DNA of 63,899 nt, the filler included, from Folioceros fuciformis (Eukaryota), in NCBI GenBank assembly GCA_049999805.1. It is 5 parts of 5 records of this genome, joined end to end, with 100 filler letters (N's around TTAATTAATTAA, not from the genome) between each part and the next. Parts side by side here need not be neighbours in the genome. Positions count along the whole stretch, not along the records: positions 46,829 to 54,480 come from JBNGIO010004577.1; 4 more parts are not named here. The stretch is one strand, 5' to 3'. This document shows positions 38,657 to 60,878 of this stretch, piece after piece (position 1 is the first letter of the stretch; each line of letters opens with the position of its first letter). A program made the translations under genes and the position numbers. The notes under the pieces were generated by a model. That model did no database searches and had not been told where the DNA came from. It worked only from the letters and a program-made list of their open reading frames with translations.

Positions 38657-38785
38657 GCGCAAGTGCGCCACCATTCCCCTTATACAACACAATGGCGAGG
38701 CATTCCCCTCATGCAAGTGCGCCACCATTCCCCTTATACAACACAATGGCGAGGCATTCCCCTCATACAGCACAATGGCGAGGCT
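38657..38785. repeat. Short tandem repeats (gcaagtgcgccaccattccccttatacaacacaatggcgaggcattcccctcat)
   Basis: Two near-identical copies plus a partial third, read directly. Confidence 0.85.
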
Positions 38786-38926
38786 GTAAGGTCAACATCA
38801 CCTACAGCCTTGGGTTTAACACCTTCACGTTGGCCCCCGCCCCTCCCGCTACAGTCTCTGCCATCCTTTGCTTCACAGTTTCGCAGTCCCCTTCACATCG
38901 CCGCCTTCTCCCTTTTTGTAGACCTC

Positions 38927-39919
38927 GGGTGCCCACTCCCCTGCTCACTTGGCCTGCACCAAACAGGCCCGTTCCCCTGCTCACTTGGCCTNNNNNNNNN
39001 NTCACTTGGCCTGCACCAAACAGGCCCGTTCCCCTGCTCACTTGGCCTACACCAGCCAGGCCCACGCACCTGCTCCCTTGGCCTGCCGCAAAGTCGCCTG
39101 CTCACCGGCTCCTTACCCCGCACCCTCCCAAGCACTCACACCTAGCCACACTGCACGCCACCCTAACTAACTAAAAAAAAGAAATGAGTGTGAGAGTGGA
39201 GGAGATGGACTGGGACGTGAGGGATAAAACAACGATCGGGACACCTACTTTGTGCCCTTTGACCGAAGCAAGCACAAACGGTCCAAACTTTTTGGACACG
39301 TTATGTCCAAACTTTTTGCACCGTATACCGCCCCACTGAAATTTATGTGAAAGAACCCTTGTTCGTATCAATATTCCATACTCCAAGAGCAAGAGAGAGG
39401 TAGACAATGAAAAATCTAGCCTTAAGACATAGTTGTGGAAGGGTTGAAGAGAGAGGTAGACAATGAAAAATCTAGCCTTAAGACATAGTTGTAGAAGGGT
39501 TGAAGAGAGAGGTAGACAATGAAAAATTAGCCTTAAGACATAGTTGTGGAAGGGTTGAAGAGAGAGGTAGACGATGAAAAATCTAGCCTTAAGACATAGT
39601 TGTGGAAGGGTTGAAGAGTAAGCTTATTGAATCTAAAGCTTGTCAGATTGAGTCTAAGAGTCTAAGGTAGTAAGAAGCATAGATCTTCACTCTTTTATAA
39701 GTATCTTAATAAAGAGCAACACTTAGAGAGGTGGTCAATATGGAATACCGATACGGACAGGGGTTCTTTCATAGATATTTAAAGGCGGCGGTATACGGTG
39801 TAAAGGAAGGGATATAAGGTTTGTGCCCGTTTCGGTCATAGGGCACAAAGTAGGTGTCCCGATCACTTTGTTCCCTATGACCGAAAGGTGTAGGCCAAGT
39901 GAGCAGGGAAGTGGCACCC
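38927..39919. mobile_element. Non-autonomous foldback/TIR-type element with long imperfect inverted repeats around a tandem array
   Basis: 39234-39380 is the imperfect reverse complement of 39739-39864; 38927-38960 pairs with 39887-39919; no coding ORF. Confidence 0.6.
39391..39618. repeat. Minisatellite, 56-bp unit x4
   Basis: aagagagaggtagacaatgaaaaatctagccttaagacatagttgtggaagggttg starts at 39391, 39447, 39503 and 39558. Confidence 0.95.
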
Positions 39920-40732
39920 TCCTAGAAGATACTTCAGCCCGACCTTACACACGGTCATGGCGGCCGCGAACATATCCCCGCAGGGGTCATCCCCTCTGGC
40001 ACCCAGCAGCCCGCAGCACACCTCGAGCCCCGCCAGGCCCCGATCGTGTTGGCCACGCTCCCACCCACGAGCGTGCATACCATCTACTCTCCCTGGCCCC
40101 TCACGCCCTCCAAGATGCGCTCTAGCTCCTCCCAGCCCATACACAGACTGCCCCATGCTCCCCGGGCACCGCCTCTAGAACTGGCATGCCCACTCGCGTC
40201 ACATGGTCGATTAGCGCCACCGTCTCTAAGCCCACCACTTCCGCCCCGCCCNNNNNNNNNNNNNNNNNNNNNNNNNNNNNNNNNNNNNNNNNNNNNNNNN
40301 NNNNNNNNNNNNNNNNNNNNNNNNNNNNNNNNNNNNNNNNNNNNNNNNNNNGCCCAGGCTCGTAACAGGCCGCCCCATTCCGAGATGTGCTAGAAACTTA
40401 AGAAAATCGCTGTCTCTTTCGGGACACAAAGTGGTTAAAGATATTAAAAAAAAATTGTATACTATGTTTACGTAGGGTTGGATATGGGAAGGTATATTAA
40501 AGGAATATTCTTGAGATGCCACAGAATATTTACATATAAAATATATATTAAAAAAAACATGACTATGTAATCCCTGTCCGCGTGGGTATTCCATAGGGAA
40601 ATGTGCGTCGGTATTCCATAGGTCAATGTGCTGTCTTGGAGCCTAGTGAGTCGTGTGAGATTGAATGATTTCTAAGTAGAGCGCTGCAAGTGCATAGACC
40701 AGATTAAGAACAGCATAAAAGGGGGCGTTACT

Positions 40733-43700
40733 TTACTTCCCCATATGTGCCAGAATTCGGTTAACGAGGATCTCTTTCTTGCCTGAGACAGCCAGGTCGT
40801 GTGCCAGAAGGTATGGGCGCAGTTGCTGAATGGTAAGATCCTTGAGCTGCAGCGACGAGGAGCATTAGCACATCAGGGAGTGTCGTGTTTCGCAAGCTTC
40901 TCGTGCAAGTGCAGAATTCACTGGCTGTAATAGAATTCCGGTACCTTGCCGCTATCTACGAGCTCCTCCCAGTTGACGCCATCAGCAGCTGTTACCGCAG
41001 CTTCCACAGCTGCTTTGCGCTTTTTTGAAGCCAAGCTGCCTTCTGCTAGCGCCTCTGCTTTTGCGGCTTCTTCTTCGTCATGATTCACTCCGTAGACATC
41101 GTCTTTAAACGCTCGGGCAGCGTTTACCACGGAGGCTCTAAACAGGAGCCGACAATATTATGACGAAAACCAATTTCCTGAATCCAGAACCCGGTGACAG
41201 CCATCGAATACCTTGCGAGACCCCTGGCATCCGGAAGCGTTGTGTCTTCCACTTCAGGTACATCTGGCTCATCGAGAGCGATAGCTTGTAGGGCTGCATA
41301 ATGCCTCTGTAGCGCTGCCCCACCAGAGAGCTATCAGCAAATGCACACCGGAAGCAAAGCGGACATGGCGTATCAAGAGAAAGGAGGGGGATACGAACCT
41401 GGGTTACGAAGGTCTAGGAGACTAAAGTCCGTCAGTTTCAGTTTTTGCACTAAAGCTTCCGCTAATCTCACTTGATCTGGTGTGGCTCGGTGAGGGGACC
41501 CTGGGCTGCATCTATGAAGCTGGACAGACCATGGCCAGCTCTGTTAACAGCATGGAAACCCTTCAAGAGTGCAAAGGAAACAAGCATTCCCATGATCAGC
41601 ATTGAATGCCCAAAGGTGCTGCTGGGCACGCAAATCTGGGAGAGCTTGCCTTCTCCGCTGGCCGAATATCATCAGAGTATGGCAAATAGATCATGTGCAG
41701 CCCTGGTGGTTGTGTTTGCACATTATCTTCGACGATTTCTTTCTGAACCCAACGCATGGTTTGTTTGCAATTTAAAAAGCTGACAGTAACAGCATATATG
41801 TCGGATGCCCAATGAACACCTCAGTTCAATAAAAGTAACGCAGAGCAAGCAGAGCATTTCTAGTATGAAAGGATGCACGAAAGAACCGCACAAGACCTGT
41901 GGCACCAAGGCGACCAATCGTGGAAATGACATCCGCCCGTAGAAAGCAACGGCGTACCTGCACAGCAAAAAGTTCACTCTAGCGACGTCTATGAACGGAT
42001 ATACTAAAGCGAACATGGAGCAGAAACTGGCATCAGATCTTACTTCCGGTGTTTTAACATCGCTCGATGTAGAGCAATAAACGCTGCTGTACTACCACTC
42101 ACACCCTAGATGCACATTAGGTTAGTTCAGTGAGCATTGACATCGCCTGAGCGTATCCACTGCTCACTAGTAAGCCTCTTCCAACCTGTTCATCTGGGTA
42201 GACAAATGTCGATGGTTGCAGGTTATAGTAATCCTTCAAAGTTTCGAGCGACTTGAACCCCAGAAGCTGAAGCTGCACCCCTGATTTCTTTATTTGATAC
42301 ATCTCATCAGGTGCGATTATGACCTTTCGACTGCATTCACAATGAACACTTTGTCACATCCACAAACTGGAAGAAACTAGATTATTATGTCTTTCATTCA
42401 CCACCAATCACCTTCCGATTAGTTGCACTCGTTTTGTCACAGCATCATTCATAAGGGCCCCAGTGTCCGCACAAATGAAGGACCTCTCTGACTGCAAAGC
42501 GTTCAAGGTACAAGGATTGCGAAGTTAGAACTTGCGTGAGGCAGAACCATAGATAAACGAGATAATTCAGGAACTAAGATACCACGGAAAGGTCTGATTA
42601 CAAGAAGTTACCTTCATTTCCGTATTTGTATGTGCCTCCACCCAAGTAGTGGCCCCTGACAACAACAATCATCAGCTCCTGATTGAACACCAACCCATTT
42701 GCTCAATGTAGCCAATGCAGCTTACCAGGGACAGATGACCTTAACATAACAAAACATTGCAGGCCGATTTCAGTGCCGGGAGTGATTGTTAACGTCAATC
42801 GCCTGGCGACGCGCTTTTTCATCACCTTTCTTCGCATGTCATCGAAAAGATCCTTCAAGCTGCCCAAAGACATTTCAGGGTACACAGAGACAGTCAAACA
42901 AGAGAAACATGTGTGCTTTTAAGACGACAGCAGGGTACCATCCCAGCGAGAAACTTATGCAAATACCTCCGTGCCTCGGTTATTGTGAACCTGCTCTCAT
43001 CTCCGTCAACTTGAGCTTGCACCATGTGCTGCAAGACAACAGTCTCGAGGTTACCAACTGATAGGAAATAATCCAACATACGAGCCTTGAGTACATCATG
43101 TCCTTGTCCGAACCACAACGTTACAACCCATGACAGAAACCACATACAGTATAGAAAATATTCGTATTAAATTCCTCTCCCGGCCTGTTTAAAGCATGTA
43201 CTTCAATGGTGATTCCCAAATCTTGGGCATCCTACACAAGAACGCAAGCACCATCAGAGCCCCGCACGGGAATTTGATCCCAGCGGCAAAGGAAAAGCAT
43301 AAATTCACCTTGGCACGTTGAATGGTGGTCCTTCTCATGTCAGCTTGCGCTGCAGCAGGAGCGTCTCCAAAAGGATCATCATTGTTGGTAAAGAGATGTA
43401 TGATCTTGCTAATATTCTTTGTGGAGCTGATGCATTGGAAAAGAGTGGTAAGGGAGACTGATTCAAACCAGAACCTTTGCATGGAGCCCTTGACAAGATC
43501 AATACCGTCCTACCAAAGAGGTGCATGTGATAACAGTCACAAGCATTACCTACGAAGCAATGCTTGTGACACCCAGAGAGAATTGTACAAGGGGTTCTCA
43601 ATAGCGTGGGAACCAAGTTGTTTCTGGCTACCAATCTGACTGTCAAAGATTTCTGTACAATTGAGGGCAAAACAGTCCAAGCACGAAGACAATTTAAGTG

Positions 43701-44613
43701 ACATGATTAGAAAGCAACAATCGGTATAGTGAGCACACTTAGTCTCATATGGATCAGAGAGATAGAAGTTAAAATCTTTAGTCCGCAACCTTTCAGCCCA
43801 ACTACGTTTCACAGGCTTCCGAAAGAAATAAGTCCATGCGTTAAGCCAGTTACCTTTCAGCCCAGCCACATCTTTGATATACACCGCTGATAGCCTTTCA
43901 GGATCTTTGAAAACATAGACGGCTTCTGATTCTTGGGGATTCCTTTTCCTTTTCTGGAGAGGACATAAATAAGGGTAACTTGACTTCGGCAGTGGAGATA
44001 AAACATCCAAAGGCAAGACATCATCCAATCAACCAGAAAACTGTCGCTCAATGTTGCAGACAGAGAGAGTTGGGGCTCCAGGAAGATGTTTGAAGATAGA
44101 AACCAACCGTGTTGTAAAAGCAGATGCCCACTCTGTCTGAGTCTCTCGAGATAATTCGACTCTTCAAGTTTGCAATGACACAATGAATCACTGCATCTAG
44201 GTAAGACTGCTCACCTCCCTGACAGACATAGTGCGTGGTCAGTAGCCCAGAAAACAGACGTTGCGTAAACAGCCACAGGAGGTTGTTCTGGAGCTCTATG
44301 TTATTCCTGAAAACCAGAACAGTACCCACCGCATCTTCAAATGTCAGCTGCATGTCTGGCCCAGCATCAATGAGAAAAATTACAAATTCCGTGTTGCCGA
44401 CATCCTAGAGCAGCGAAAATCCAAGGAAACGGATTCAGACATCTCGTTGTGAAGCCTTGTTCCGATAAATCGAATCTGGGCAACCACCCAGACTTCTCGA
44501 TTGGGAACTGCATTGCAAATAAAGGTATAGACGACCACCGCGGCAAGCTCTCTCTCCTGCTCTTCTTCCTCGTCAGCAAACAAGGACTCCTGGAATGCTG
44601 TATCTAGTTCCAT
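40733..44613 (-). CDS. KU70: Ku70 (ATP-dependent DNA helicase 2 subunit), multi-exon
   Basis: vWA-type SRIISRDSDRVGICFYNT, LYNSLWVSQALLR, LFTNNDDPFG; core LLGFK....LKDYYNL.PSTFVYPDE, PRLVALV; C-terminal SAP domain LKDLTIQQLRPYL...L.VSGKKE.LV.RI..HMGK*. Confidence 0.95.
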
Positions 44614-45689
44614 TGTTCCGGAGCTGGAAGTGTACAAAACCCCTGCGTGACCTTACACGAAATTGGAGGCACGGAGTCGCGTAAAAAAGAAAACTCCATA
44701 CAATCCATACGAGCTGCAAAATTGCCTCATGCACACAAGATTGAGACAGGATCAGCAGCAGAATGCCCACCTGATCCAAATATGAAGCAAGTCAACGAGC
44801 TTTGGAGTACAAAACACCAACTTCAGCTCGTCCAGCACACCTTGAGTGAGCACTATTTCTCAAGTCGGTAGGTTTGTGTAGTATTCGACTTCCCTTTCCC
44901 GCCCGTTTGTTAAGAATCGGACCAATCGAGCTTTCACAACAACAACTGCTACAGCTCTCATCCTCAGCCAATTGAATCCTTGGCTTTCATACAAAGAGTT
45001 CACTCGGCGTTCAGGTTGGAGTCCATTCATACTCTTCCATTCAACATCTCCAGTCAGTCTGGAGATGCTGGGCCTGGGTATCCTTACACCTCTTGGCTGT
45101 AAGTTCCGGGCCAACAATCCGTTACCTACACCGGTAACACCTTAGTGTACTCGACATACCCAGGAACAAAGGTGGATTTTCACTGCGAAGATGACACTCT
45201 GGTTGAGGAAGATGATTTTGTGGAGCTTCTGCAAACTGATGATACCAAGGATATGAATTCTCTGTGCCCATTTATGATGATGTAATGGCAGATTCTTCTT
45301 TCTTTTGCACTATCCTTGCGCTGCAGCCTGGAGGCGAGTTCATGCTACGGGGTGCTGCACACAGACTGCGCCAAGGAGGAGCGTGCCATTGGAACTGTGA
45401 GCAACCTAAAACCCTAGCCAGGACTCTCCGGACACCCATGTGATACGTGAATTTTGTGCACACAACATGGCAGTTTCCTTGGAAGTGAAGCTTCATTTTT
45501 GTGACCAACGTCCCGCGCTCAAGAACAGTCAAGGGCTACTCATTTTGAGTTAGGCCTTCGTCCGTTAAAGTTCATCGTATAGCGGGTATCGGACGGAGCT
45601 GTAGCGGAACGTGAGAAGGCTATATTTCTTGTTAACCTTAGGATTTAGTTAAGCTTCATCCTAATATTTCACGGTCCGCCTTTTTTCCT

Positions 45690-45895
45690 TTTCCCTACAT
45701 ATAAAGCCTTATTGTATATTTCTATTCCTTACATATAAAGCCCCGTGGGTCTTATTGCCCCATGGGTCTTATTGTATATTTCTATTCCCTACATACAAAG
45801 TCTCCTTGGGTCATATTGTACATTTCTATTCCCTGCATATAAGGCCTCATGGGTTTTATTGTATATTTCTATTCCTTTACATGTAAAGTCCTACG
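45690..45895. repeat. Degenerate tandem repeats (tattgtatatttctattcc.tacat..aag), probably transposon-derived
   Basis: Motif recurs near 45710, 45770, 45814 and 45857. Confidence 0.75.
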
Positions 45896-46968
45896 ATTTG
45901 TTTGTACAGTTTTATTCTTATTGTGCATTTTTGTTCTTCCGTGTATGTACTTGGTCCACATTTTTCTCTCCTCTTGTGTATACAACCCAATGGATCTTGT
46001 TCTACATTTCTGTTTTTATTTTGCACTTCCCCAAGCCGACTTCCTCCAAGGAAGAATCAAGAAAAGTAAAGAAGGCTTATTTTTAGAGGTAAGAAAGACT
46101 ACTTAGTGAAATATGAGGCTCCATAAGTGGTAGCCAAACCCCTAACAAGGGTTCCAAAAAAAAGCGTGCAGAAGATGTTTAGAAGCACACGAATCTCAAA
46201 GTGGACCACGAACCACAAGGGAAATCCTTGGGTTTCGTGTACAACAACCTTCGACTCCAGCATAAGCATTGCCGTTTTTAAAACACACGGGAAGACATAA
46301 AACCCTAAGAAAAGATATATGACGCGAAAGCCTCATGTACGGTTTTGAAGCCGAGCCGTGCCAGCAATGGGGTGGCTTAGGGACCGATATGATGATTGGC
46401 TTAGGTAGCGCGGCCGTAAGGGCACCTGTAGAGATATCCTTTGTGAGACTGCAATCCACAAACAAAGCATGGGACTAACCTTTACTTGGAAACAGATACG
46501 GGAAACATAGCATGTCACAAAAGCGAGGCTCGATATGGGATTCGCCCGCTTAGTAGCTTGCTCTAGGGCACCTAGTGAGCTTCTTGATGCAACACGAGAT
46601 GAGGGCAGAGAGCAAAGCCGACTCAATTTCGGGCCACCAAACCCTGCAACTAACTGGATTTTAGAACCAAGGAAGCGCGCGAACGTATGTTGTAAGCTCC
46701 CTCCCTTCTCTTGGTGCCTAGAGGACAGNNNNNNNNNNNNNNNNNNNNNNNNNNNNNNNNNNNNNNNNNNNNTTAATTAATTAANNNNNNNNNNNNNNNN
46801 NNNNNNNNNNNNNNNNNNNNNNNNNNNNTCATCACCCTTTCTTGTAAGTTCCAATAACTGAAGACATACTTGCATTTAGTGTAGAATTATGTTATTTTAT
46901 TTTTTCAGACATCTATATGAAACATCGATTGTTTTCTTCATGTCTTCAACAATTTTTTATTGACTCAG

Positions 46969-49279
46969 AACTTGGTGGACCTTGCTGGATCAGAGCGGTT
47001 CAATAAAACTGGATCTGAAGGACTGCGTCTAAGAGAGGGGATCTATATAAACAAAAGTTTGAGTACTCTTGGAACAGTAATACACAAATTGAGTGATCCC
47101 AGTGAGAAACAAAGGTAATATTATTATAAGAAAATAAAGTCATTCGTGAATCATTTCTGTTGCAAACTAATTATTTAAAATTTGTAGGCAACATATTCCA
47201 TACCGTGATAGTAAATTAACTCGCATCTTACAACCGGCATTGGGTGGAAATGCAAAAACAGCTGTGATTTGCAACATAACCCCGGCATTGGTGAGTGTAA
47301 TTATCGATTGCAATTTGTATGATTGATAATGAACAAAGAAGAGTTTTGTGTAAAATTATTCTTCCTTGGAAAAGGTGCATGTTGATGAAACAAGAGGAAC
47401 ATTGCAATTCGCTAGTCGAGCGAATCGAGTGACTAATTGTGCTCAAGTAAACGAGGTACTTTCAAAATTGTGGATCGGAGAGATTGATTCTTCAATGTTG
47501 TTCTATCACATAGATTAGCTTTATACATATAGTCTATCGTAGATTCATTTATCAACACACATGTTAAAAGAAGATGAACATGATACTCAGATTCTTACTG
47601 ATGCTGCTTTGTTAAAACGCCAAAAGAAGGAGATAGAGGAACTGCGCAAAAAGCTAGAGGTAATAGATTTCAACTAAACCCTAATCCCTAAACCCTAAAC
47701 TCTAAACCCTAAACCCTAAACTCTAAACCCTAAACCCTAAACCCTTTCAACTAAAGAATACATATATAAGCTTTTGTTGTATCATGTATTCCCTAAGTAC
47801 TATGAAAATTGGTATATACTAAAAACAATTTGCATTGCAGGAATCACATTCGGACCATTTGGAGGAACAAATTCTTAATCTTCGAAATGCTTTACTTAAG
47901 GTAAGAGTTTAAACAAGAGGACTAAGTTATTTGTCTTATAAATATATTTATGAAGGCTGAATCAACATGTTATGATACGTAGATTGAGTTGGAACGAGAA
48001 AAGATGTTGGCTGAACTTAATGAAGAAAAGAGAGATAAAGCAAAACAAGAAGAAAGAATCAAAGATCAAGAGCAGAAGATTGAAAGCCTAAATAATATTA
48101 TCCATACAGTAGGCGACGTTGAAAGTGACAAAAAGGTTAGAATAAAATCTTACAAATATTTTTATTATTTATTATTTTTTTTCCTTGAAAGTAGTAAGCT
48201 ATCAATCATTAATTTAATTCTAAACAGATATACGGAATATGGAACAAAACTTGGCTTCCTAACTTACAATCCCTAGGAGGTAGCAATGAGGTAATCTCAA
48301 AGATTGGGTTTTCAAGTTTGTTTTATTTTTGAAGTGGTGGACAATGGGAAAGGAAGAACGGATTAAAATACTTTCTTTTTACTAGACTCGAGAGGTGAGT
48401 GAAAAGAAGAAAGATTTGGAAAGAAAGCTTCAGGAATTAGACAAAGCATTAACTAAAACCAAGAGCGAAAATGAAACACTTCAAACACGTCTACAAGAAT
48501 CTGGTGTGGTACTAGCCAATGCTCAAGATGAGAACCAGAGATTGCTTACAGAGTTGCAAACCTTTGATGCAAACCTTTTGGAGGAAAGGGATAAGACTAA
48601 AATTTTATGTGCGAGGATAAAAGAGTTGGAGGATGAAAACAAAAGGCTTATTGACAACCCATATGATGATGCAATAACTACAATAGATGTGGGTGCTACA
48701 AAAAACTCTACCGAGAGGTTGACAGTACGAGAATGTGGAACATGTGCTGTCTGTGCACAACCTATCAAAGATAATCTCTATTTGGCTTGGAACAATTGTG
48801 GTCACCCTTACCATCCATTCTGTTTTGCTATTGCAATTTCTGCCGATAGCATATGCTATGGAAGGGGCTGCAAGGAAGAGCTTCCTATAAGTTGGATGAA
48901 AGCATTGAAAATACCTTCGAGTACGAAAACCATTGATGATANNNNNNNNNNNNNNNNNNNNNNNNNNNNNNNNNNNNNNNNNNNNNNNNNNNNNNNNNNN
49001 NNNNNNNNNNNNNNNNNNNNNNNNNNNNNNNNNNNNNNNNNCCATGAAAATACTGAAATTGAGGTCGATATGAAGATACATGAAGATCATCATGATGATG
49101 GTGTACCTTGTAAATTACATAGGAAAACTAAAAAGCCAAGTACATACAAGCTTGCATTAAAAGCATTGGATCGCTGTTATTTAGGCACTGATCGCAAAGG
49201 AAAAACTAAGAAAAAATCTACAAACAAAGCGCACGATCCCTCGAAGAAAAAGGCAAGAGAAAAGGGTTGGCAGAATTAA
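46969..49279 (+). CDS. Kinesin-7/CENP-E-like motor (C-terminal half visible), coiled coil and RING-H2-like domain; 5' end lost in the gap; continuation past the 48942-49041 gap uncertain
   Basis: GT-AG exons 46969-47114, 47188-47290, 47375-47455, 47591-47659, 47841-47900, 47983-48135, 48229-48290 and about 48386 onward give [78 protein letters not shown], then CAVC...CGHPYHPFC...C...C. Confidence 0.85.
47675..47745. repeat. Interstitial plant telomere-like repeats (AAACCCT)n, about 10 units, inside a kinesin intron
   Basis: taaaccctaatccctaaaccctaaactctaaaccctaaaccctaaactctaaaccctaaaccctaaaccct read directly. Confidence 0.92.
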
Positions 49280-50291
49280 TAAAATTTAATCCTAATATTA
49301 TTACAATATGCATTTTAGTTTGGTTGTAGCAAAATGATCAATATAAAACCTAACAGGCTGACTAAACGTTCACTACTATTGTTACAGTATTAGAGTTTGC
49401 ATGTGCATAGTAAATGGTACTGATATGATCTGACACGCTAATTGCAGTGGAAGAAAAGGCTTTCACCCAGAATCAACAACAAAGCATGTAAGGTAAAAGG
49501 TAATAAAGATTTGTCATAGTTTTAGAGGATTCATATNNNNNNNNNNNNNNNNNNNNNNNNNNNNNNNNNNNNNNNNNNNNNNNNNNNNNNNNNNNNNNNN
49601 NNNNNNNNNNNNNNNNNNNNNNNNNNNNNNNNNNNNATTGCGAAAGAGAATAATTTTATTCAGAAGAACTTTTACACCCTAGATAAGTCGTAACATATTA
49701 TTATATGAGATCATATTACAATTTTGTTGGTGCCAGTGGGAGTACGGACAATTGCATAGTTGGGCTTGGAGTATCCGTCCATTAACAATGTAAAAATGAA
49801 TTATACAATAGTTTATGATCTCTTTCTTCTTTCGAGAATGGAGTGCATAAAATCGCAGAGAAAAGAATGGAGTGCATAAAATCGCACAGAAGAGTCACAA
49901 GAGCCTGCAAAAAGCTGACCCGCTCTCCCACACGTAAATAGACAAACCTGCGGCCTGGATTTTGGGAAGCATAATAATTTCACTTTCTGCCTACCACCCT
50001 ACACAGTTACTGGACAAGCGTGCAGGCAAGGAAACCACCAAGGGCCACAATCCTGGCAGCACAGCACCATCGATAGAATAGAATAGAATAGATTACACAA
50101 TCGGGAAGGAAGACTGGTGGGAGTCACCCGGCCCAGCATCTACCTGATTTTCGCCGAGGTCTGTTGGTGACCCACCAAGAAGGAACTAAGCTCACGGATG
50201 CCTAAGCCGCCCCGGGGCGGCTCTTCCGTCTTCCACACCACAGATCATGGAATTGGAACGAGGAAAGGCATCCCGCCACCCTCTTCCCCCA

Positions 50292-50335
50292 AGCTAAGCC
50301 AAGCCAAGCCAAGCCAAGCCAAGCCAAGCCAAGCC
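50292..50335. repeat. (CCAAG)n microsatellite downstream of phototropin
   Basis: Pentamer run read directly. Confidence 0.9.
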
Positions 50336-50609
50336 TGGTGTCGTCTCCGGGTGGACTAAGGGACCCGGTCCTCTCCTCGCCAGGAAGCCTGTACAAGCTC
50401 ATCAGACTGACTCTAGCCTCGGCCGAGCTACCTGCTCCCGTGGACACACATCTGAAGTGTAGCCCTTTCCATCTATGGAGATGGAGGGGTTGTAGCCCCT
50501 CGAGAAAAGGGGGCAGAATGTTGAAGAAGACGCTTGCCATTGCATGGGAAGGACGTCCCCGTGCAAGCAGAGGGCAGGCAGGCACTTAGGTGGAAGGGAA
50601 GGGCAGATA

Positions 50610-53600
50610 CTAGAACACATCACCAAAGGTAAGGGAGTTGGACTGGGTGGCCTCCGTCTCGTCCCACTCCAGGTCTGGCGCCTTGGCATCCGCGTCCAGG
50701 TCGTCGCCACCCCCAACCAAGCCGATGGGCGTGTCCAGAGGAGGCGGTCGCATCCACCGGATGAGCGGCCAGTTGATGCCCCGGAAGAAAGGGTGCTGCT
50801 TCAGATCGTTGGCGCCCCGGTATGCGCCCAGCCGACGGGTGGGATCCCGCTGCAGCAGCCCCCGGATGAGCTGCCTCCCCGCCAAGCTCACCGGGACGCT
50901 GCTGGGGAATGTGAGCTCCTTGTTCAGCACGTTGACGAAAGTCTTGTGCCGGTTACGGCCCCGGAACGGCGTCCGCCCGTACAGCATCTCGTAGAGCAGA
51001 ATCCCCAGCGCCCACCAATCCACCGCGCTGCTGTGGCCTGCCCCAGCAATGATCTCCGGCGCGATGTACTCCTCCGTGCCCACAAAGCTGTTGGAGGATA
51101 CACTCGGCTCGGCAAAGAAGACCGGGGGCGGGCCTGGCCCGTCCCGCCTCCGCTTCCTCCGCCTCCCCTCGTCTGCCCGCGCTGGCCGCACCAGCTGCGG
51201 CTGGGAGGATGTGAGGAAGGAAAGGTCGAAATCCGTGAGCAGGATGTGGCCGTTGCTCTGCAGTAGCACGTTCTCCGGCTTCAAGTCCCGGTAGATGACC
51301 CCCATACAGTGCAGGTATTCCAGAGCCACCACAACCTCGGCAGCGAAGAATTTGGCCGTCTCCTCGCCGAACACCTTCTGCGGCTGGCGGTCGAGCAAGA
51401 GAAAGAGCTCTCCCCCGGGACAGAAGTCGGTGATGAGGCAGACGTGGGTCTTAGTCTGGAAGGAGGCGTAGAGCGTGGGGAGGAAGGGGTGGTCCATCAT
51501 GGCCAGGATCTCCCGCTCCGCGCACGCCCGGTGCACCTTGTTCCGCTCCAGCATCACCCCCTTGTCCATGGCCTTCATGGCGAAGAGCTGCCCCGTCCCC
51601 CGGAGCTCCACCAGGTGCACGCTCCCGGTATCCCCGCACCCCAGCGGCCGGATGGGCCGGAAGTGCTTCAGCCCCAGCTTCTCCCCGCTCCTCTGCACTC
51701 TCTTCACCGCATGCCAGAGCGGGCTGTCCCGCTTGTGAGGCCGAGGGCTCACGGGCCTGGAATGGCGCACCCACAAATCGTCCGGAGTGAGGTTTGCGTC
51801 TGGCAACTCCCTAGCCGCGGCATCCACATTGTGGGCGGTGGCCCGCACCACCTTGGCTCCCTCCTGCTCCGTCCGCTCCGAAAGCCGCTTCCTGATAGCC
51901 CCCGGCTCGTACTCGCTGCCGTCCAGCTGCACCCCGATGAAGTACTGAAGATCCCCCCTTTGGTCGCGCATGGCCTGTAGGTGGAAGAGATTCCAGAACG
52001 GCTTCCCGCTCTTGGTGTAATTCAGGAGCTGGACGGTGATGTCTCTCCTCTCCCGGATGGCATCCGCGATCTTGCGCACAATCTCCCTGTCAGTGTCCGG
52101 CCCCTGCAGGAACCGGCAGTTCCTCCCCAGCACCTCCTCCCTGCTGTACTCCGTGAGCTCGAGGAAGTGGTCGGAGGCGAAGATGATGGGATTGTCCGGC
52201 AGGCGGGGGTCCGTGATGACGAAGTTCTTCTCAATCCGCTCGAGCGTGGTGGCCAGGTCTATCCCCCGCCGGATCTCCTTGGCGTGGTCCGCATCGTCCA
52301 GGCTCTCCGGCCGCTCTTGCTCGTCGTCCACCATGATGAGCTCCGGCTCCGGGAAGTCCTGCAGCGGGTCCGCCTCCTTCTCGAAGACATTGTTTCTCTT
52401 CTCCAGCCCCAGCAAGGACAGGAAACCGGAGGAGCGGTGCCGGCTCCTTCCGCCTGCAATGACACTGTCAGGATCATCATGCTGCAGGCTGACGCTCCCG
52501 ATGGAATGGCGCTTGTCAGCTTGACCCAGAATGATCTGCGAAGCCCTCCGGCTGGTCCCGGTGCTCTCTGGAGGTAGCTGCTGGGTGCGCACAACGCGGT
52601 CAGGCCTGGTCACGGCTGTCACCAGCTCCGACACGAAGCCGGAGGCCTTCTCCCTCTGCCGGGCGTCATACTTGATGAGAGACTCCGGGAGGCCATTGGG
52701 ACGGAGGACGTTGGCCTTGCTGCCCTCCGTGTACTTGCTCACTTCCACCTGCATGCCTATGAACTTGATGACCGTCCCGGAGTCGTCCTTGATAGGGGCG
52801 ATGGTGAGGAGATTCCAGAAGGAGCTTCCATCCTTGCGGTAGTTGAGCAGGCGGCCACAGAAGGTGTTGCCTTCGTGTAGGCAAGTACGGATGCGCTGCA
52901 CCTCGTGAGAATCCGTTTCCGGGCCCTGGAGGAAGCGGCAGTTCCGACCAATCACCTCCTTGGAAGAGTAGCCCGTCATGGAGAAGAAGCCCGCGCTGGC
53001 GTAGAGGATGGGGAAGTCCGGCTTGGTGGCGTCCGACACCACGAATGTCTGCTGGAAGGTGGAGAGCGCGTCCTTGACGTCGCGGGAAACCTTGGGGAGG
53101 GTGGAAGCGGCGCCATCGCTGCTGCTGCCGCCCTCCGATGTGCGCAGGGAGGGGATGGATCCGGAGCCGCGGGGCTGGGCCTGGTTCTGCCCGGCCGCGG
53201 TAGGGGAAGGAGAGGCCTCGTCCCCGGACTTGCGAGTGCCCACCCTCCCGGAGCCCAGCTCCTCCTTGAGGACCAGCCCCCACTGCGCGGCTCGGTCTGC
53301 TATGGCGGTGTCCGAGGACAACACGTCTTTGTTGGCGGCCTCCTCCTTCAGCGTGGACATGGCAAGCGCAGATGGCGTGCCAATTCGCTCCGGAAGCACG
53401 TAGGCCTGCACCTCCGCCTTGGGCCCGGGTCCATTCCCGTTGGCATTCGCATTGGCATTCGGCTGAGGCTGGGGCTTACGGGGGAACTGGTCGAGCCCCA
53501 TCCACTCCTGGGCCAGCACGGAGGTTGGCGGGGGAGACGACGGCGCCTTCTTGTCGGCGGCAGCAGTGGGCCATCCTCCCCCCACCGACATGAACTGCGT

Positions 53601-54056
53601 CTTGTTGTTGGAGGCGGAGTGGTAGGAGAAGGGGAGCACCCGGCCCCGGCCCTGGAGGTGTGGATGGTCGTCTTCGTCCCCGTCCGAATGATAGTTCCGG
53701 CGCACGTCCGGTAAGACGTCCTTGTCGTAGGTGACGGAGGCAGGCGGCGCAGGGAAGGCGGGGGCGGGGGCGGCGGCGGCGGTGGCGGCGGGCGCCCCAG
53801 CCGAGCCGCCTCCGAAGACGGGAACATCCGACCTGTTGGGCATGGCAAGGCCGGCAGAGAAGAAGGAGTTGGCGGCGGTGGGTGCTCCCCCAAACACCTC
53901 GAGGGAACCGCGGGAGTCCCTGGGCATGTCGGGGCGCTGCGGGGGCGGCACCACCTCGCCCGCCATCGCGGGCCTGTAGGTGGAGGCTCCCGGCTGCGGA
54001 GCCCTGTTGGGCACCGATGGCGGCCAATCCGCGATGGGAGGCTTGGCGGGCGCCAT
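50610..54056 (-). CDS. PHOT: Phototropin (LOV1-LOV2-AGC kinase), entirely intronless
   Basis: 1148-aa ORF with two GRNCRFLQG LOV motifs and kinase motifs LGCGDTGSV, YRDLKPEN, DFD and SNSFVGTEEY; no phytochrome module. Confidence 0.98.
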   Translation of the reverse strand: MAPAKPPIADWPPSVPNRAPQPGASTYRPAMAGEVVPPPQRPDMPRDSRGSLEVFGGAPTAANSFFSAGLAMPNRSDVPVFGGGSAGAPAATAAAAPAPAFPAPPASVTYDKDVLPDVRRNYHSDGDEDDHPHLQGRGRVLPFSYHSASNNKTQFMSVGGGWPTAAADKKAPSSPPPTSVLAQEWMGLDQFPRKPQPQPNANANANGNGPGPKAEVQAYVLPERIGTPSALAMSTLKEEAANKDVLSSDTAIADRAAQWGLVLKEELGSGRVGTRKSGDEASPSPTAAGQNQAQPRGSGSIPSLRTSEGGSSSDGAASTLPKVSRDVKDALSTFQQTFVVSDATKPDFPILYASAGFFSMTGYSSKEVIGRNCRFLQGPETDSHEVQRIRTCLHEGNTFCGRLLNYRKDGSSFWNLLTIAPIKDDSGTVIKFIGMQVEVSKYTEGSKANVLRPNGLPESLIKYDARQREKASGFVSELVTAVTRPDRVVRTQQLPPESTGTSRRASQIILGQADKRHSIGSVSLQHDDPDSVIAGGRSRHRSSGFLSLLGLEKRNNVFEKEADPLQDFPEPELIMVDDEQERPESLDDADHAKEIRRGIDLATTLERIEKNFVITDPRLPDNPIIFASDHFLELTEYSREEVLGRNCRFLQGPDTDREIVRKIADAIRERRDITVQLLNYTKSGKPFWNLFHLQAMRDQRGDLQYFIGVQLDGSEYEPGAIRKRLSERTEQEGAKVVRATAHNVDAAARELPDANLTPDDLWVRHSRPVSPRPHKRDSPLWHAVKRVQRSGEKLGLKHFRPIRPLGCGDTGSVHLVELRGTGQLFAMKAMDKGVMLERNKVHRACAEREILAMMDHPFLPTLYASFQTKTHVCLITDFCPGGELFLLLDRQPQKVFGEETAKFFAAEVVVALEYLHCMGVIYRDLKPENVLLQSNGHILLTDFDLSFLTSSQPQLVRPARADEGRRRKRRRDGPGPPPVFFAEPSVSSNSFVGTEEYIAPEIIAGAGHSSAVDWWALGILLYEMLYGRTPFRGRNRHKTFVNVLNKELTFPSSVPVSLAGRQLIRGLLQRDPTRRLGAYRGANDLKQHPFFRGINWPLIRWMRPPPLDTPIGLVGGGDDLDADAKAPDLEWDETEATQSNSLTFGDVF

Positions 54057-54899
54057 GGGGGTTGCACTCTGCGCCGGGCCTTCAAGGAGGTGAGCCGCTG
54101 GACGTCCACTTCCTTGAAGCTGACGGCATGCGCGTGCGCATGTGACGACGCTGCAATTCCCTGGTGCAAGTGAATCCCCTGGCCTGGCCCTGGTGCAGCC
54201 ACGAGACGAGAGCTTAGGCTAGCAATCCTGGAGCGGAGAGGGCCGGTGCAATTGGGTTGCAGCGGGAGCAGCAGGCTGAGCAGGAGAAGGGGGTGGGGAA
54301 GGAGAAGATGGAGCAGGCCTAAGGAAGGGACCGGCGGCAGGGGAGCACGTCGCGGGCACAAGAGTGGCCATGTCGGGGAGAAGACGTAGCCTAGCCGGTG
54401 CACCGAGCAAGCGAGGGCGCTAGTCCAGGAGCTCAGGCTTGGATGAGCCTGCAGTGGTACACGGAGGAATGCAAGGGGGGNNNNNNNNNNNNNNNNNNNN
54501 NNNNNNNNNNNNNNNNNNNNNNNNTTAATTAATTAANNNNNNNNNNNNNNNNNNNNNNNNNNNNNNNNNNNNNNNNNNNNTAACCCTAGGTAGGTTACTT
54601 TAATCAGGGTTAACCTAACCCGTAACAGAGAGGAGAAGAGAGTTGAGAAAAGGAGCATTGAGAAGAAGTGAGCTGAGAAGGAAGTTGAGTGGAGACGGCC
54701 TGGGCGTGGAAGTCGCGAGAAGGAGACGAATCCGCCGATTGCGAAGTGGAGGGAAATCCTATCCCTCCCTTATTTCCTAACTGTTGACTTCCACCCCAAG
54801 GCTGGTGACGGTGGAAATGAGAGACTAGGGACTGAGTGGGTGAAAAGGAGTGGGTACCAACCGGTGGTAGTGCTACGACGATAGTGGAACATGGATGAC

Positions 54900-56800
54900 T
54901 CGGCCAGTATAAAACCCTAGGTGAGTCAGAGGGGATCAATCGCGATTCGAATAGAAGTGCAACTGCGAGGTTGAGAAGTGGAAGCGGAAGTAGAGCGGAG
55001 CGCGACTTCGGCAAGGAGCAGAAGCACGCGCAGCAGCAGTGGAGCAAGGCGAAGGCGGTGCAACAGACAATTGAGACTGCGAGGAGACAAGGCAGGATGG
55101 GGAGAGAGAATATCGTAGTGCCGCCGGCGGTGGAGGAAGCGACTGGAGAGGAGAAGCAACCTCCTGTGCCGAGGGTGGAGTTGGCCTTCTGGCCAAACAT
55201 GGAGTACTGAAGGGCTAGTGGGGGAGCTAGGCCTCGGGTTCATGGCTCAGCGATGGAACCATGCAGCTCCTGGCCTCGTTTGGGAGTGCCCTCAGCGACT
55301 GAGGGAACCAGTCCGGGAGGAAGGAATTCGAGGCAGGCCGCAGGACTGGAATCTGGAGCTGATGCGGCGCGTGTATGGGCGCAAACATGAGGAGGAAGCC
55401 GGACTCGTGCTAGAGTCCATGAAGAAACGCAGCACTGCAGCGGCCGCTACAGCACTGTTTAAGGCTGGAAATGGGAGAGAAGCCAACGGGTGACTAGCCA
55501 GGGACATGGCGACTGCCCAACTGATGGGGCTGGCTAGGTGGCTTCTTTGTTTTTTGCAGATCCGCAAGACTATCTCTTCAACCAGATGCTCTTATTTGTG
55601 CACGAGGTAGTTAAGGGCAGTAGGGTGGATTGGGGCAGGATCCTGTACAAGAGGATGAGTGAGGAGAGGCATAACTTGGCCTCATCCTCTCCTCGACCTT
55701 CTATGATTTCTCCTTTCTTGGTACACACCTATTGCTATGCTAACCTCCAGCCTGAAGTAGAAGTAATTGCCTCCCTACACGTGGAAGCCGCTCAGGGAGG
55801 TGAAGTGGAAGCCCGTGGAATCCAAGGAAGTAGACTCCAGCAGTTGGGAGTCAGGAGGCAAGGGGAGTTCAGAGGAGAGGCCCGACCAGGCCGAAAAGGA
55901 AGGTGGGGACAGGACGGAGAACTCCCACCAAAAGGAGGAGGACTGTTGGGCAGGTCACCAAGAGTGGGAGTGGGTCAGCACAGCAGGAAGTCATCCAGGA
56001 GCAGGCTGAGAAGGAACCAAAGGCTCCAGAAGCAGGCTGAGAAGGAACCAAAGGCTCCAAGAGCAGGCTGAGAAGGAACCAAAGGCTCCAGGAGCAGGCT
56101 GAGAAGGAACCAAAGGNNNNNNNNNNGAGAAGGAACCAAAGGCTCCAGGAGCAGGCTGAGAAGGAACCAAAGGTTCCAGGAGCAGGCTAAGAAGGAACCA
56201 AAGGTTCCAGGAGCAGGCTGAGAAGGAACCAAAGGCACCTCGGGTGCCAGAACTAGAAACGGCCCCATTTGAGGGGAGGGCTAAATTAGGGCACGTTACG
56301 AAAAAAGAACCCTTCCCAGGATGGGAAGAAATTTATATAAGAGGAATTACCCTTCTCGGGATGGGAAGAAATTTATACAAGAATTCCTCTAGTCGCCAGG
56401 CTGCAGAGGATCTGAATTGCGATCACCGCTGGGAAGGCAGAAGGCAGACCTTGGACAGGAGGATGCCTCCTGTGGGGAGTCGCAGCAAGTCAACTTGCTA
56501 GGCTTTATCTCAGCGATGGTGTAAGCCCAGGCAGATATGCTGATGAAGCTGCCAGGGCACTAACCTGACTGAGCATGCAGGCGGAAAGGGAGGCTAAGCC
56601 CGGGAGAAGAAGGCCGAAGCCCGGGAGAAGTCGGCGGCACCACGTAGAGGAAGTTCGACAGACCCTGAGTACAGCCAAGGAACGGGCCGAGGAGGAAGTC
56701 TTCCAGGCAAGAGAAGAAGTGCTGAAGGAAAAGCAAGACATGTGTCAGGTTTCTCACATGCTTCTCCAGAAGAGCCTTCGACACACATCAAGTAAGATTC
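54900..56800 (+). mobile_element. Degraded accessory ORF, probably from an LTR retrotransposon (stops and frameshifts)
   Basis: Broken frames reading RGRPQDWNLELMRRVY...VDWGRILY....E...L.......ISPFLVHTY, then a charged repeat and a coiled-coil-like stretch; resembles plant retroelement extra ORFs. Family not verified. Confidence 0.5.
55998..56236 (+). repeat. 30-bp tandem repeat (about 8 copies, with an internal N gap) encoding EQAEKEPKAP-like units
   Basis: gagcaggctgagaaggaaccaaaggctcca repeated. Confidence 0.93.
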
Positions 56801-57000
56801 TTCAAGACATGGTTCATGTGCAGAATTTACCTGTGGGCCAGGGCAATGCAGCCGAGGTTCCAGAGTGCCCTCATTTGGCAGCACAGCTGTTTGAATTTCG
56901 CCTCACCAAGAACGGTAACCCTAGTTTCGTACTCTATTCCCTTGATGCGTTGCCCATTTGTCTGGATGTGTGGTACTATGCAAGCATAGGAACCTACCTC

Positions 57001-60000
57001 CTATGCCGTGCTCCTTTTCACCTTCTGGATGTAGTAGGCTGTATCCAGGACCTTAGAAGGAAAATCTATGACATCCACATTGATCTGCATAGTTGCAACA
57101 TCCTCCCCCTTCGTGAACTCCATTTCAAAATCAGGACCTAACCACTCTCCAGCTCCAAAATCTGGCTGGGGATGCAATTCCCTTTTGTGAAGTAACGGGA
57201 ACTCTGCCAACGTGGATTTTGCGCTGCCCTCCAGAAGACTGAAACAGTCTACTCCAGCAGTCAAAGGATCACAGAAACCTTTCTCAGATTTTGCATAGTC
57301 CACGCTTGAGATGTGATGACCTTTAGCACTACTGCCAGGGTTAGGTTCACCAGCATGAAGCTGCGGACCTGGAAAATGGCCATCCATCACCTCACTACCA
57401 GACATCAAATTTCGAATGCAGAGTAGATCATCTATGCATCTCGTCAATGATGGTAACACATCAGAATTTTGGAATGAAGGAAGCTCAGCCTGATATTCGG
57501 CTAAGCCCTTCGTAAGCGTATCAAACTGTTTCACCGAGAAAGTACTGAGACTTGCTCCGTTGCTGCTTGGAGAACAAAGCATGGCTGGCTGCTCCGAGTC
57601 ATAGCTGCGAAAACCCCTGTGTGGATTGGTTCCACCTTCCGTTCGGACAGTAGAATTGCATGGGTCCACCATCAGTAAATTTTCTGAATGGCTTCCTTCA
57701 TACCCCGCCTCCCTGTTCATGAAAGAATCATGGCAGTTTGCCGTGCAGACCATAAGTTGCTCTGCTTCCACTCCACAAGTACCCACGGAGCATTGTACAT
57801 GGTTTCTGAGGGAGAAACTACTTGATGATGAACTGCCAAAGTCCATTGCATGGATGTCTGGTGACAAAGCGTGCAAAGTCACCTCCTCCAAGCAGCAAGA
57901 ATTCTTTGATGACATACTGAGAGTCCTATGTCCATCCTTATACATCCACTGAGTTTCTCCAATCTCGTGTGATCCAGGACTGCTGCTGCCTTGACCCCAT
58001 ACCTTCCTAATTGGGCAAGGCTCACTAGTGCTATCATGAAACGCAGATCCAGCCCGGGGTCCTCCCCACACAGTCAGCTGAGGACTTATTTCATACTCGG
58101 TCACCAAGCCTTGCCCCCAAACAGACACCCTAGTTTGTACGGACAGTGCGTTACATGCACCACTAGATGGAAGCAATGCAGTCGGCTGCAAAACGACATT
58201 CCCTGTGAACACATTGGATACCTTGCCACCATTGGTGCAATCCCCCTCTTCACCAACGCACATGGCTTTCCAAACTTGTTCCACCTCCGCAGTGGTCATG
58301 TCCTCTAGGACTCGGCTATCCTGCAGGCGTGCACACCCCTCCTCCACCGACAGTTGAGAGCTGTTCTTTCTCTCAATTAGTTGCAGTGAGTCCCAACTGT
58401 ACGTGCCAGAAACACCAGGAACAAACGCGGCACGATATTCAGATTCAGCCTGTTTGGATTTTGGACTTTCGAGATCACATTGAGCAGCCACCTTTTGCTG
58501 ATAATCTCGCAGTACAGTGCATCTTGGGACCATCTCTGCGCTATCGAAGGACCCATCTGCTGACTTCCTGTGCTTTCGACGCAGGTCCTTCCGCCTCATT
58601 GTGGCATTCCAATGGTTCTTTATAGCATTTTCAGTTCGACCAGGTATAAGTTTCGCAATGTCAGCCCACCTATTGCCAAGCTTATTGTGTGCTGACACAA
58701 GGGCTTCCTCTTCTTCAGTGTTCCATCCATCACGCTGTCAAACAAGGGGAGCAACATTGATGTCCACAGGTCACAAACTAAAAAATTTCTTTGTCCTTTA
58801 CATTGGCAAGGCGCGATAATTGACAACAAGGAATGAAACTGAGAACCACACAAAGAAGGTGCTCTACCTTTATGTCAGGGCGCAAATGATTGTGCCAGCG
58901 TTCACGACATTGCTTTCCAATTCGGCCTGTCAAATATGTAGCAATTAGTGACCAGCGCTGCTGTCCATGCCTTTCAACAAGCTCCATAAGGTACCTGTCA
59001 TCAGACAAACACACCTGGAGATAGGACTCGCTTGAAGGTAAAAACAACGAAGATAGAAAGGCAGATCATGCAAACCTGTCCTCTTGAGGCGTCCACTGGC
59101 CCTTTATGATGTTTGGCCTTCTTGGACCCCCCTTGGATGAACGCTTCAAGAAACGCCTGCTATCTCGGTCATCATTCTGTTCTGCTTTAGCCATCTCGTA
59201 AGCCTCTCTGGCAGTAAGTTCCTTGACTGTTTCCTGCAGTGAACCACCGAGATAATATTCATGGCCTGGAATAACTACAGTGACAGCTGCAGCAATATCT
59301 TCGCCTGGAATACCCAACCACCCTCGTAGACTACTTGGTCGCAAATGTTTGTCCTCTATCCCTCCTACATTTGGAGGTGAATGGGAGTCCCGCTGCCTTA
59401 TAAACTCTTCAGGTACAGATGGCACCTTCCCCTCGAGCTGCTTGTATTTCTGATTTTCCTTCAACTGCATTTCCAGTATCTGTGCTTTGAAGTTGGCACT
59501 TGCTACTACAGAACAGTCTTCAAAGTAGCTCCCTTCCTGCCAAAATTCCCCAACTATGACTGGATCCACACAGGCTTGAGAGTAATAACCTTCAAGCTCT
59601 CGTATGCAGCCAGAAAATGCACCGCCCCCCATGTCAAAATCGTTTAGAATACCACTTAACTTTAATGAACCACAGCCTTGTTTGGTGTCGGAAGGATTCT
59701 CTAACAAAAGGGATGCTGCAACCCTTTCCACCAAGCTTGATGGCTCTACTAAGGAGCTCTCTATGTTTGGCAGATCCACAACGGTTTCAAAGGACTGAAT
59801 CCCACTGTCATCGACTTCAATGGTCAGATGTTTCAGCCCTGTCTGCACCGCGTGACAGGGCTGCTCATTGTACTGCTCTCTGATTTCATCAATCACTTGG
59901 TATTCTGTCTGCACTTCAGGCAACAGCCTCCCATTAACAATAGATTCACTAACCCTGGCACCTCCAAACTTTTCCTCATCTTCAGATAGTTGATAATCTC

Positions 60001-60457: not shown

Positions 60458-60878
60458 CCTCCCGAGGTGACTTGCCTGTGGAATTTTCAAGAAACGTAGC
60501 TATGGATCCGTTAGCTTCAAACCTAAGAACTGGAGTGAAGTATTTTCTCCAGCATCAAATCGGGATGGAAGTTTTTCGCTTCCACACCAGCTTTTCTGAC
60601 CGGCAACTCCGATCAGGGTTTGAGTGGCACTGGTCCCTGGAGAACAAGCATGACGCTATCCTACAAGGTGAGGCCAGAACATGACTTAAGGGACAACCTA
60701 TGTCCAGGAGGTTCCCAAATGCCTAATGTCCTTTCGCTGAATGCATGACATCCACTAAGCCTGCTGTTTGAAACAAAGGTGAATGCACAGGCTCCTAGAC
60801 AAGAAGAGCGAAAAAAGCTGGGTAGGGAAAAACGTCTGTCGTAGAAGCACATAAGCAGTCATCTGCACCTACCGCACA

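Follow-up and report, generated by a model that had tools for sequence, protein, structure and literature searches.

RING-tailed kinesin-7s are known in seed plants and have hardly been studied. In these proteins a kinesin-7 motor is followed by a coiled coil and, at the C-terminal end, by a finger of RING type. Passages of a wheat kinesin survey restrict the RING region within kinesin 7 to group B (PMC11660758). Here we describe a partial gene at positions 46969-49279 of a 63,899-nucleotide stretch of DNA from Folioceros fuciformis (GenBank assembly GCA_049999805.1), hereafter the window, that is predicted to splice a kinesin-7 motor in frame to a RING-like finger. A motor joined to a RING is a known plant theme; in this locus it appears with another motor subgroup and another finger type. 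The group B finger is of the C3HC4 type and stands at the extreme C-terminus, whereas the finger in the window has C3H2C3 order, a last pair of the form C-x4-C and then a tail of at least 100 residues. The motor appears to differ as well, since its 120 nearest relatives carry no precomputed RING family. By these nearest motors and by standard RING profiles, against which the finger is sub-threshold, the gene falls outside group B.

The nearest described relatives of the motor itself are found elsewhere in kinesin 7. At1g59540 is KAK1, a kinetochore-associated kinesin 7 and CENP-E counterpart that drives chromosome congression, according to the passages of a 2025 review that deal with it and that also name a P. 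patens kinesin7-III candidate (PMC11794483). With KAK1/KIN-7N, KIN-7L and KIN-7O the window gene shares the C-terminal half of the motor, the neck linker and the first coiled coil (63-72% identity over about 193 residues); it is unlike them beyond about residue 200, and neither the Cys/His module nor a Pfam RING is found among the nearest kinesins (0 of 120). KIN-7N we take to be At1g59540, and one member of the clade carries the name 'like AT1G59540'. The drive kinesins of maize Ab10, KINDR and TRKIN, offer a further comparison. They are kinesin-14s with C-terminal motors, encoded in tandem arrays linked to knob repeats, and are likewise tied to chromosome segregation; the gene described here is a kinesin-7 with its motor on the N-terminal side, and in the window it has neither a satellite beside it nor an extra copy.

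We consider it probable, though well short of assured, that the locus represents a true, intron-containing nuclear gene from a land plant outside the seed plants, of which the 3' two-thirds are present, and that it encodes a kinesin-7 of the KAK1 clade whose RING-H2-like tail is specific to its lineage. An earlier note on this DNA had proposed a kinesin-RING chimera borne by a mobile element; the in-frame gene model is supported by our analysis and the element-borne capture is not.

Gene model and motor identity

The gene can be read as eight exons and seven introns, all of the latter bounded by GT and AG, with phase kept at all junctions and 410 codons open up to an assembly gap. This bears out the earlier description of canonical splice sites and one open frame running from switch II to a Cys/His cluster. 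The features of the gene are as follows.

46829-46843, plus strand: possible end of a preceding kinesin exon, its last 15 nt (SSPFL), then GTAAGT; weak, may be intron
46969-47114, plus strand: exon 1, switch II (DLAGSE) and the following motor helix; PF00225, E 2.6e-15
47188-47290, plus strand: exon 2, microtubule-binding part of the motor; PF00225, E 1.8e-13
47375-47455, plus strand: exon 3, motor end and neck linker (..NCAQVNE); aligned to KIN-7N, too short for a Pfam match alone
47591-47659, plus strand: exon 4, neck coiled coil; aligned to KIN-7 proteins
47674-47745, plus strand: telomere-type array in intron 4 (47660-47840), 7-nt plant unit, 10.3 copies, 90% matches
47841-47900, plus strand: exon 5, coiled coil; aligned to KIN-7 proteins
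47983-48135, plus strand: exon 6, coiled coil; KIN-7 homology stops here (about residue 193-202)
48228-48290, plus strand: exon 7, short segment with a Trp and a weak likeness to the KIN-7N motif GDV..D..W..NK..L
48386-49279, plus strand: exon 8 (terminal; sequenced part before the gap 48386-48941), predicted helix, disordered linker, RING-H2-like finger and Lys-rich end
48389-48655, plus strand: single long helix, exon-8 residues 2-90, predicted (pLDDT 86-97)
48743-48871, plus strand: putative RING-H2-like zinc finger, C120 C123 C138 H140 H143 C146 C157 C162 in exon-8 numbering
48942-49041: 100-N gap inside exon 8, between kinesin contigs 46829-48941 and 49042-49536
49277-49279, plus strand: stop codon TAA, end of exon 8

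Spliced exons 1-6 align to plant KIN-7 proteins over the 193 or so residues mentioned above with a single one-residue gap, and five of the intron calls are therefore confirmed by homology. The introns measure 73-181 nt, and exon GC (0.39, with 0.34 at third codon positions, GC3) is higher than intron GC (0.28), as in a working plant gene. Telomere-like repeats had been noticed in one intron, and they are indeed present: intron 4 holds eight of the nine matches in the window to a two-unit telomere-type motif, with 0.02 expected by chance. The run is real but small and microsatellite-like. A lone telomere-type motif outside intron 4 lies at 23609. The gene begins at switch II because its scaffold begins 140 bases upstream of exon 1, and no N-terminal motor exons (P-loop, switch I) were found elsewhere in the 64-kb window.

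Exons 1 and 2 match the kinesin motor family PF00225 with 56.7 and 50.7 bits (cut-off 29.3) at profile positions 228-272 and 275-307 of 327, so that the motor as present comprises positions 228-307 only. Of 3386 candidates compared with exon 1, 2365 proteins reached E ≤ 0.001. The best 120 of these were land-plant proteins and a few unnamed ones, those with a source name being KIN-7N, KIN-7L or centromere protein E, and the Pfam families precomputed for them were PF00225 and PF16796 only, with no RING. Identity to exon 1 was at most 75% for every database protein matched. The Mesotaenium protein that headed the exon-1 matches was set aside, as it is a different kinesin type with 43-44% identity over the joined sequence.

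For the phylogeny we used FastTree on a 200-residue region of 35 sequences, namely the window motor and 34 of the 120 matches hand-picked for taxonomic spread, a sample from which the NACK, MKRP and RING-type kinesin-7 subgroups were absent. The window motor fell inside the KIN-7N/7L/7O clade with a support of 0.965, weakly as sister (support 0.69) to a 1295-aa Cephalotus protein. It was 63-68% identical to, and roughly equidistant from, each full-length angiosperm member of the clade and was not nested in any angiosperm group; it is therefore no copy of a sequenced angiosperm gene. The highest identity to any compared sequence was 76%, over a partial overlap of 133 columns. Contamination with angiosperm DNA was rejected on the same two grounds, the lack of nesting and the ceiling on identity.

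Judged by these comparisons, the motor is best classed as a kinesin-7 of the KIN-7N/7L/7O (KAK1, CENP-E-like) clade, and it looks like a deep, non-seed-plant branch. The label CENP-E-like was thus apt, and the motor phylogeny proposed as a check, here run against database kinesins, supports the placement. The short stalk, which the earlier note set against the very long ones normal for CENP-E-type kinesin-7s, is no anomaly, since clade members among the exon-1 matches listed are only 612-850 aa long.

Terminal exon and RING-H2-like finger

The kinesin alignments end at residues 153-202, and what follows residue 200 or so bears no relation to KIN-7 tails; in particular, no homology to the kinetochore-targeting tail of the clade was found. 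Exon 7 resembles the KIN-7N motif in one Arabidopsis protein (score 32 versus 21.3 ± 4.0, reached by 9 of 500 shuffles), and its comparison with five other proteins was not significant, 66 to 436 of 500 shuffles reaching the score. At the start of exon 8, a stop codon lies directly 5' of the acceptor and overlaps its AG, and the stretch from there to the finger contains no Met. Exon 8 is therefore not a free-standing open reading frame (ORF) and must be spliced.

An exhaustive phmmer search with the tail against 1.84 billion representatives gave nine proteins at E ≤ 0.001. The best, an unnamed protein of 301 aa from an assembled sequencing run (P0121), matches residues 11-185 of the tail (175 residues) at 58% and E 2.7e-59. 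Past the 100-N gap, the next piece of the ORF has 48% identity over 54 residues to the C-terminal end of the same protein (E 8e-15), and both finish with ..AREKGW-x-N-stop at the same stop position. Homology to P0121 on both sides of the gap therefore shows the two pieces to be one terminal exon, 48386-49279, that spans it; the continuity of frame through 48942-49041 reflects the arbitrary 100-N length alone. Some 260 sequenced codons of exon 8 stay open in AT-rich DNA, and P0121 has an amino-acid make-up that is likewise of AT type. Taken together, the open frame, the homology to P0121 and the shared stop speak for constraint on the tail rather than for a pseudogene evolving neutrally.

Of the eight further matches, one is a tick protein that aligned in the coiled coil alone. 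The others are three hypothetical proteins of Adiantum nelumboides or their fragments (MCO5603792.1, MCO5568527.1 and MCO5550691.1), fragments without a name and a Riccia sorocarpa protein (KAL3677007.1, source name 'RING-type domain-containing protein'). The fern and bryophyte proteins share with the window gene a coiled coil followed by C-x2-C..C-x-H-x-Y-H-P-x-C..C..C..W, and unlike it they have no kinesin domain annotated. At least three gene models of Adiantum nelumboides contain the module. Their identity is 77-79% over 382-502 residues, yet they are flanked differently, by a retroviral-type protease in one and an NIF phosphatase in another; a pfkB fragment is also found (P0122, P0128, P0130 and P0126, that is, Adiantum and a fragment). 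Such copies suggest a dispersed, perhaps element-associated family, and the Adiantum coil and RING-like proteins may equally be the product of chimeric gene models.

The finger has the pattern C-x2-C-x14-C-x-H-x2-H-x2-C-x10-C-x4-C, in which C120, C123, C138, H140, H143 and C146 are invariant in all eight aligned sequences (the tail and seven relatives). When a profile built from these eight sequences was run against solved structures, it matched the C-terminal RING-H2 of Vps18 (8e-6), the PHD finger of KMT2D (1.3e-4), the RING-H2 of rice EL5 (5.9e-4), Pep3 (6e-4) and RNF13 (8.4e-4), and for RING-H2 domains as a whole the profile E values ran from 8e-6 to 1.5e-3. EL5, RNF13, RLIM and Vps18/Pep3 have the same C3H2C3 order, the motifs CAVC and CGHxYHxxC are like those of EL5, and in Vps18/Pep3 a C-terminal RING-H2 is also preceded by helices.

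An AlphaFold2 model on the eight-sequence alignment (mean pLDDT 80.7) predicts that residues 2-90 form one helix and residues 94-115 a disordered linker, with the finger itself compact (pLDDT 77-85). The leading rows of a Foldseek search with this fold were RING domains (RING1B at 6.9e-3, EL5 at 2.1 Å over 50 columns, HRD1 at 1.3 Å over 49), and the superposition on EL5, HRD1 and RNF165 spans 1.3-2.1 Å and 49-50 columns. ESM Atlas features of the finger pointed to RING-type clusters at 0.87-0.92, which we treat as leads only. Unlike RING-H2 domains, the window finger has its C-x4-C pair, no Trp after the sixth Cys and scores beneath those that Pfam accepts. The RING call draws on the family profile and the predicted fold and is weak by Pfam. 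We conclude that the finger is RING-H2-like and belongs to a fern and bryophyte family that has no Pfam model; it may be an E3 ligase. Of the RING-H2 domain announced in the earlier note, the order of the Cys/His ligands is present and the family profile and predicted fold resemble RINGs; the spacing of the last pair is not the canonical one, and the scores fall short of the Pfam cut-offs.

Neither the profile nor the Cys/His pattern of the tail module was found in any of the 120 nearest kinesins. Word-index searches for longer proteins with the tail found 0 in 5336 candidates with the single sequence and 0 in 8000 with the eight-sequence profile, the profile search being insensitive enough to miss known relatives of 796 and 826 aa. 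Among metagenome contigs, 593 pattern matches yielded none that was confirmed, and a degenerate motif pattern gave 0 matches. Our literature search found no description of a KIN-7N/KAK1-clade kinesin with a RING-H2-like tail.

If the gene is what we suspect, its 5' part would be missing solely through the end of the unplaced scaffold, and after the neck coiled coil the usual tail would have been replaced by one large terminal exon that encodes a helix of about 90 residues, a flexible linker, a RING-H2-like finger for two zinc ions with its C-x4-C pair and a lysine-rich end. The protein would dimerize via the coiled coils and travel along microtubules to their plus ends or to kinetochores, where the finger may recruit an E2 for ubiquitin transfer or may just bind a partner. 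According to this view, the gene would be a parallel, with an unrelated finger, to those seed-plant kinesin-7s of group B that bear a RING.

Scaffold setting and alternative explanations

The window contains 14 runs of N (eight of 44, four of 100 and two of 10), and four spacers of the form N44-TTAATTAATTAA-N44 divide it into five unplaced scaffolds. Spacers with stops in all six frames are the usual device for stringing unplaced scaffolds together, and adjacency across them carries no meaning for any finding in the window. The gaps and repeats among which the locus had seemed to lie are a product of the assembly, as the 'gaps' that flank it at 46729-46828 and 54481-54580 are two of these spacers. 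The kinesin scaffold, JBNGIO010004577.1, has 7652 bases in the window and consists of three contigs joined by two 100-N gaps.

31993-32092, 46729-46828, 54481-54580 and 62213-62312: spacers N44-TTAATTAATTAA-N44, with stops in all six frames
1-31992, 32093-46728, 46829-54480, 54581-62212 and 62313-63899: the five scaffolds, of which 46829-54480 carries the kinesin
49537-49636: scaffolding gap of 100 N, the sole link of the kinesin contigs to the phototropin contig
50610-54056, minus strand: phototropin, convergent with the kinesin, two PAS/LOV domains and a kinase, first ATG at 54056

The exons had been called far more AT-rich than the GC-rich genes nearby, and so they are, the phototropin having a GC of 0.65 and a GC3 of 0.83. 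In 200-bp steps, GC is 0.26-0.41 throughout up to about 49830 and 0.55-0.73 beyond. Other genes in the window have GC3 values from 0.38 to 0.83, a spread from which it follows that the genome is compositionally heterogeneous. Stronger CpG depletion was considered as the source of the AT-richness and rejected, as the observed/expected CpG ratio of the kinesin is 0.60 and the window range is 0.45-0.80. Intron number is inversely related to GC3 in some plants, a relation not shown for this lineage; it would put the 3' part of a gene with many introns at the AT-rich extreme and a gene with none at the GC-rich one. The AT-richness is most simply explained by heterogeneous composition, with many introns in the one gene and none in its neighbor.

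A number of observations weigh against a genuine kinesin-7 gene with a RING-H2-like tail. The splices, including the key join of exons 7 and 8, are predicted from DNA alone. If the 15 nt at the start of the scaffold are exonic they are atypical, as SSPFL agrees with the usual RVSVL at the final residue only. The last Cys pair of the finger, C-x4-C in the window and C-x2-4-C across the relatives, departs from C-x2-C, the canonical last pair of a RING, and the finger scores below the Pfam cut-offs for PHD (18.6 bits versus 24), zf-C3HC4_2 (17.8 versus 27), zf-rbx1 (17.7 versus 31) and zf-RING_2 (16.4 versus 27.3). Foldseek of the predicted tail fold against the Protein Data Bank returned no row at E ≤ 0.001. 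No kinesin that carries the tail came up in any protein search, and the fusion is seen in one species. The window has a single long AT-rich stretch, the kinesin block of about 3 kb, which holds 11 of the 20 500-bp windows of GC below 0.40 (254 scored). The kinesin introns have a GC of 0.28, compared with 0.41-0.43 for the two Myb introns measured, and the link of the block to the phototropin is a scaffolding gap alone.

The last two of these points would also be expected if the AT-rich contigs (46829-48941 and 49042-49536) were foreign DNA, for example from a co-sequenced bryophyte or fern, that was mislinked to the phototropin contig, an explanation we consider unlikely and yet the most probable of the alternatives. 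It would fit with the sharp break in GC near 49830, with the origin of the tail relatives in ferns and liverworts, and with the third contig, whose AT-rich first 260 bases could be the phototropin's own 3' flank. Scaffolders, however, require read-pair links before they join contigs, and the kinesin introns are of the same length class as the host introns, with a CpG ratio inside the host range. Of six sequencing runs listed, three contain all or part of the stretch, and no RNA run is listed as containing it. Two runs labelled with the same organism contain 82% and 64% of its words, which speaks against a foreign origin, although they are from one sample that may be the source and so are possibly not independent. 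The identity ceiling of 75% in exon 1 excludes a sequenced contaminant and not an unsequenced one.

A shade less likely, in our view, is that two unrelated pieces have been read as one, a decayed or truncated kinesin and a separate or dead coil and RING-like ORF whose in-frame join is fortuitous. The predicted nature of the exon 7-8 join leaves room for this, as does the fact that kinesin homology ends before exon 7, whose own likeness to KIN-7N is marginal; P0121 was called as a stand-alone protein with a Met start, and retention of intron 7 would stop the kinesin frame after 13 codons. On the other side, exon 7 is just 95 nt from the tail exon, phase is held at all seven junctions, and the tail ORF opens immediately behind a stop that shares bases with a canonical AG and offers no Met ahead of the finger. 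The Met start of P0121 may itself be a gene-caller artefact inside an exon, of a kind familiar from such collections.

A bolder scenario, which we regard as more doubtful than either of these, is that a kinetochore-type kinesin of a non-seed plant lost its targeting tail and gained, as one intron-free exon, the coil and RING-H2-variant module that in ferns is dispersed, multicopy and possibly retroelement-associated. The motor would then carry a ubiquitin ligase at microtubules of the spindle or kinetochore, and its gene, in unassembled AT-rich DNA, might be young, rapidly evolving or even segregation-distorting.

The idea of a mobile or multicopy locus was pursued on the scaffold and in the window. 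The 7.6-kb scaffold has no terminal inverted repeats, its only inverted pair being 19 nt at 84%, and no long direct repeats beyond microsatellite-like runs; a second copy of the gene or another kinesin fragment was not found in the 64-kb window. The hallmarks of a transposon-captured fragment of the Pack-MULE or Helitron kind were likewise absent from these 7.6 kb of context, the 5' side lying beyond the scaffold edge. The transposon-like setting of the earlier note thus has no transposon feature to match it, the terminal repeats proposed as a check did not appear on the scaffold, and a multicopy or selfish gene finds no second copy in the window; the selfish or element-borne reading is unsupported. 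The notion of a transposon-captured, possibly multicopy kinesin-ubiquitin-ligase fusion acting as a selfish segregation motor is the least probable of all, for although a single intron-free tail exon attached to small kinesin exons is as for en-bloc acquisition, the Adiantum module has its several differently flanked gene models, the locus is on an unplaced scaffold and the motor clade is the kinetochore one, it is opposed by this lack of repeats and copies, by a 5' truncation that is the scaffold edge, by a motor and tail that both look constrained, by the kinesin-14 class of the Ab10 drive kinesins and by a telomere-type array that is a short intronic run.

Neighboring genes and wider meaning

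The phototropin frame (50610-54218, minus strand) is uninterrupted over 1202 codons, and the protein is complete, with a long N-terminal stretch of low complexity. It is unusual for a land-plant phototropin to lack introns, and hornwort phototropin is intronless, a point on which our literature search gave nothing usable. Between the kinesin and phototropin stops lie a (CCAAG)n microsatellite of 9.4 copies (50289-50335) and a 29-bp tandem duplication (49835-49891).

Elsewhere in the window, a Myb-repeat gene on the minus strand (57004-59120), with two introns of 81 and 133 nt and GC 0.41-0.43, served as the host intron reference. Also on the minus strand are an intron-free frame of 719 codons for a PPR protein that has an E motif, of the RNA-editing factor type (23683-25839), and an ORF with a GIDE domain and a C3HC4 RING, the architecture of an SP1/MUL1-like organelle E3 ligase (12220-13344). 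Two further open frames on that strand, 26500-28788 (763 codons) and 59069-60499 (477 codons), had no Pfam match at E 0.001. The last small scaffold holds a copia-type gag fragment at 62962-63645 on the minus strand (PF14223, E 2.1e-12). The 10-N gaps at 38992-39001 and 56117-56126 have identical stretches of 11-15 bases on either side and look like unclosed gap-filling overlaps, and a 44-bp tandem repeat (45761-45890; three copies, 79% matches) stands near the end of the second scaffold, before the spacer.

The main practical value of this analysis is a caution, in that an apparently transposon-like setting arose from concatenated scaffolds. Should the fusion prove real, a RING-like finger would have been joined to a kinesin-7 for a second time, independently and with an unrelated finger, in this case in the kinetochore-kinesin clade. 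That would suggest selection for ubiquitin-ligase or zinc-finger binding activity at microtubule plus ends, and a family of RING variants in ferns and bryophytes that has so far had no Pfam model would be defined.

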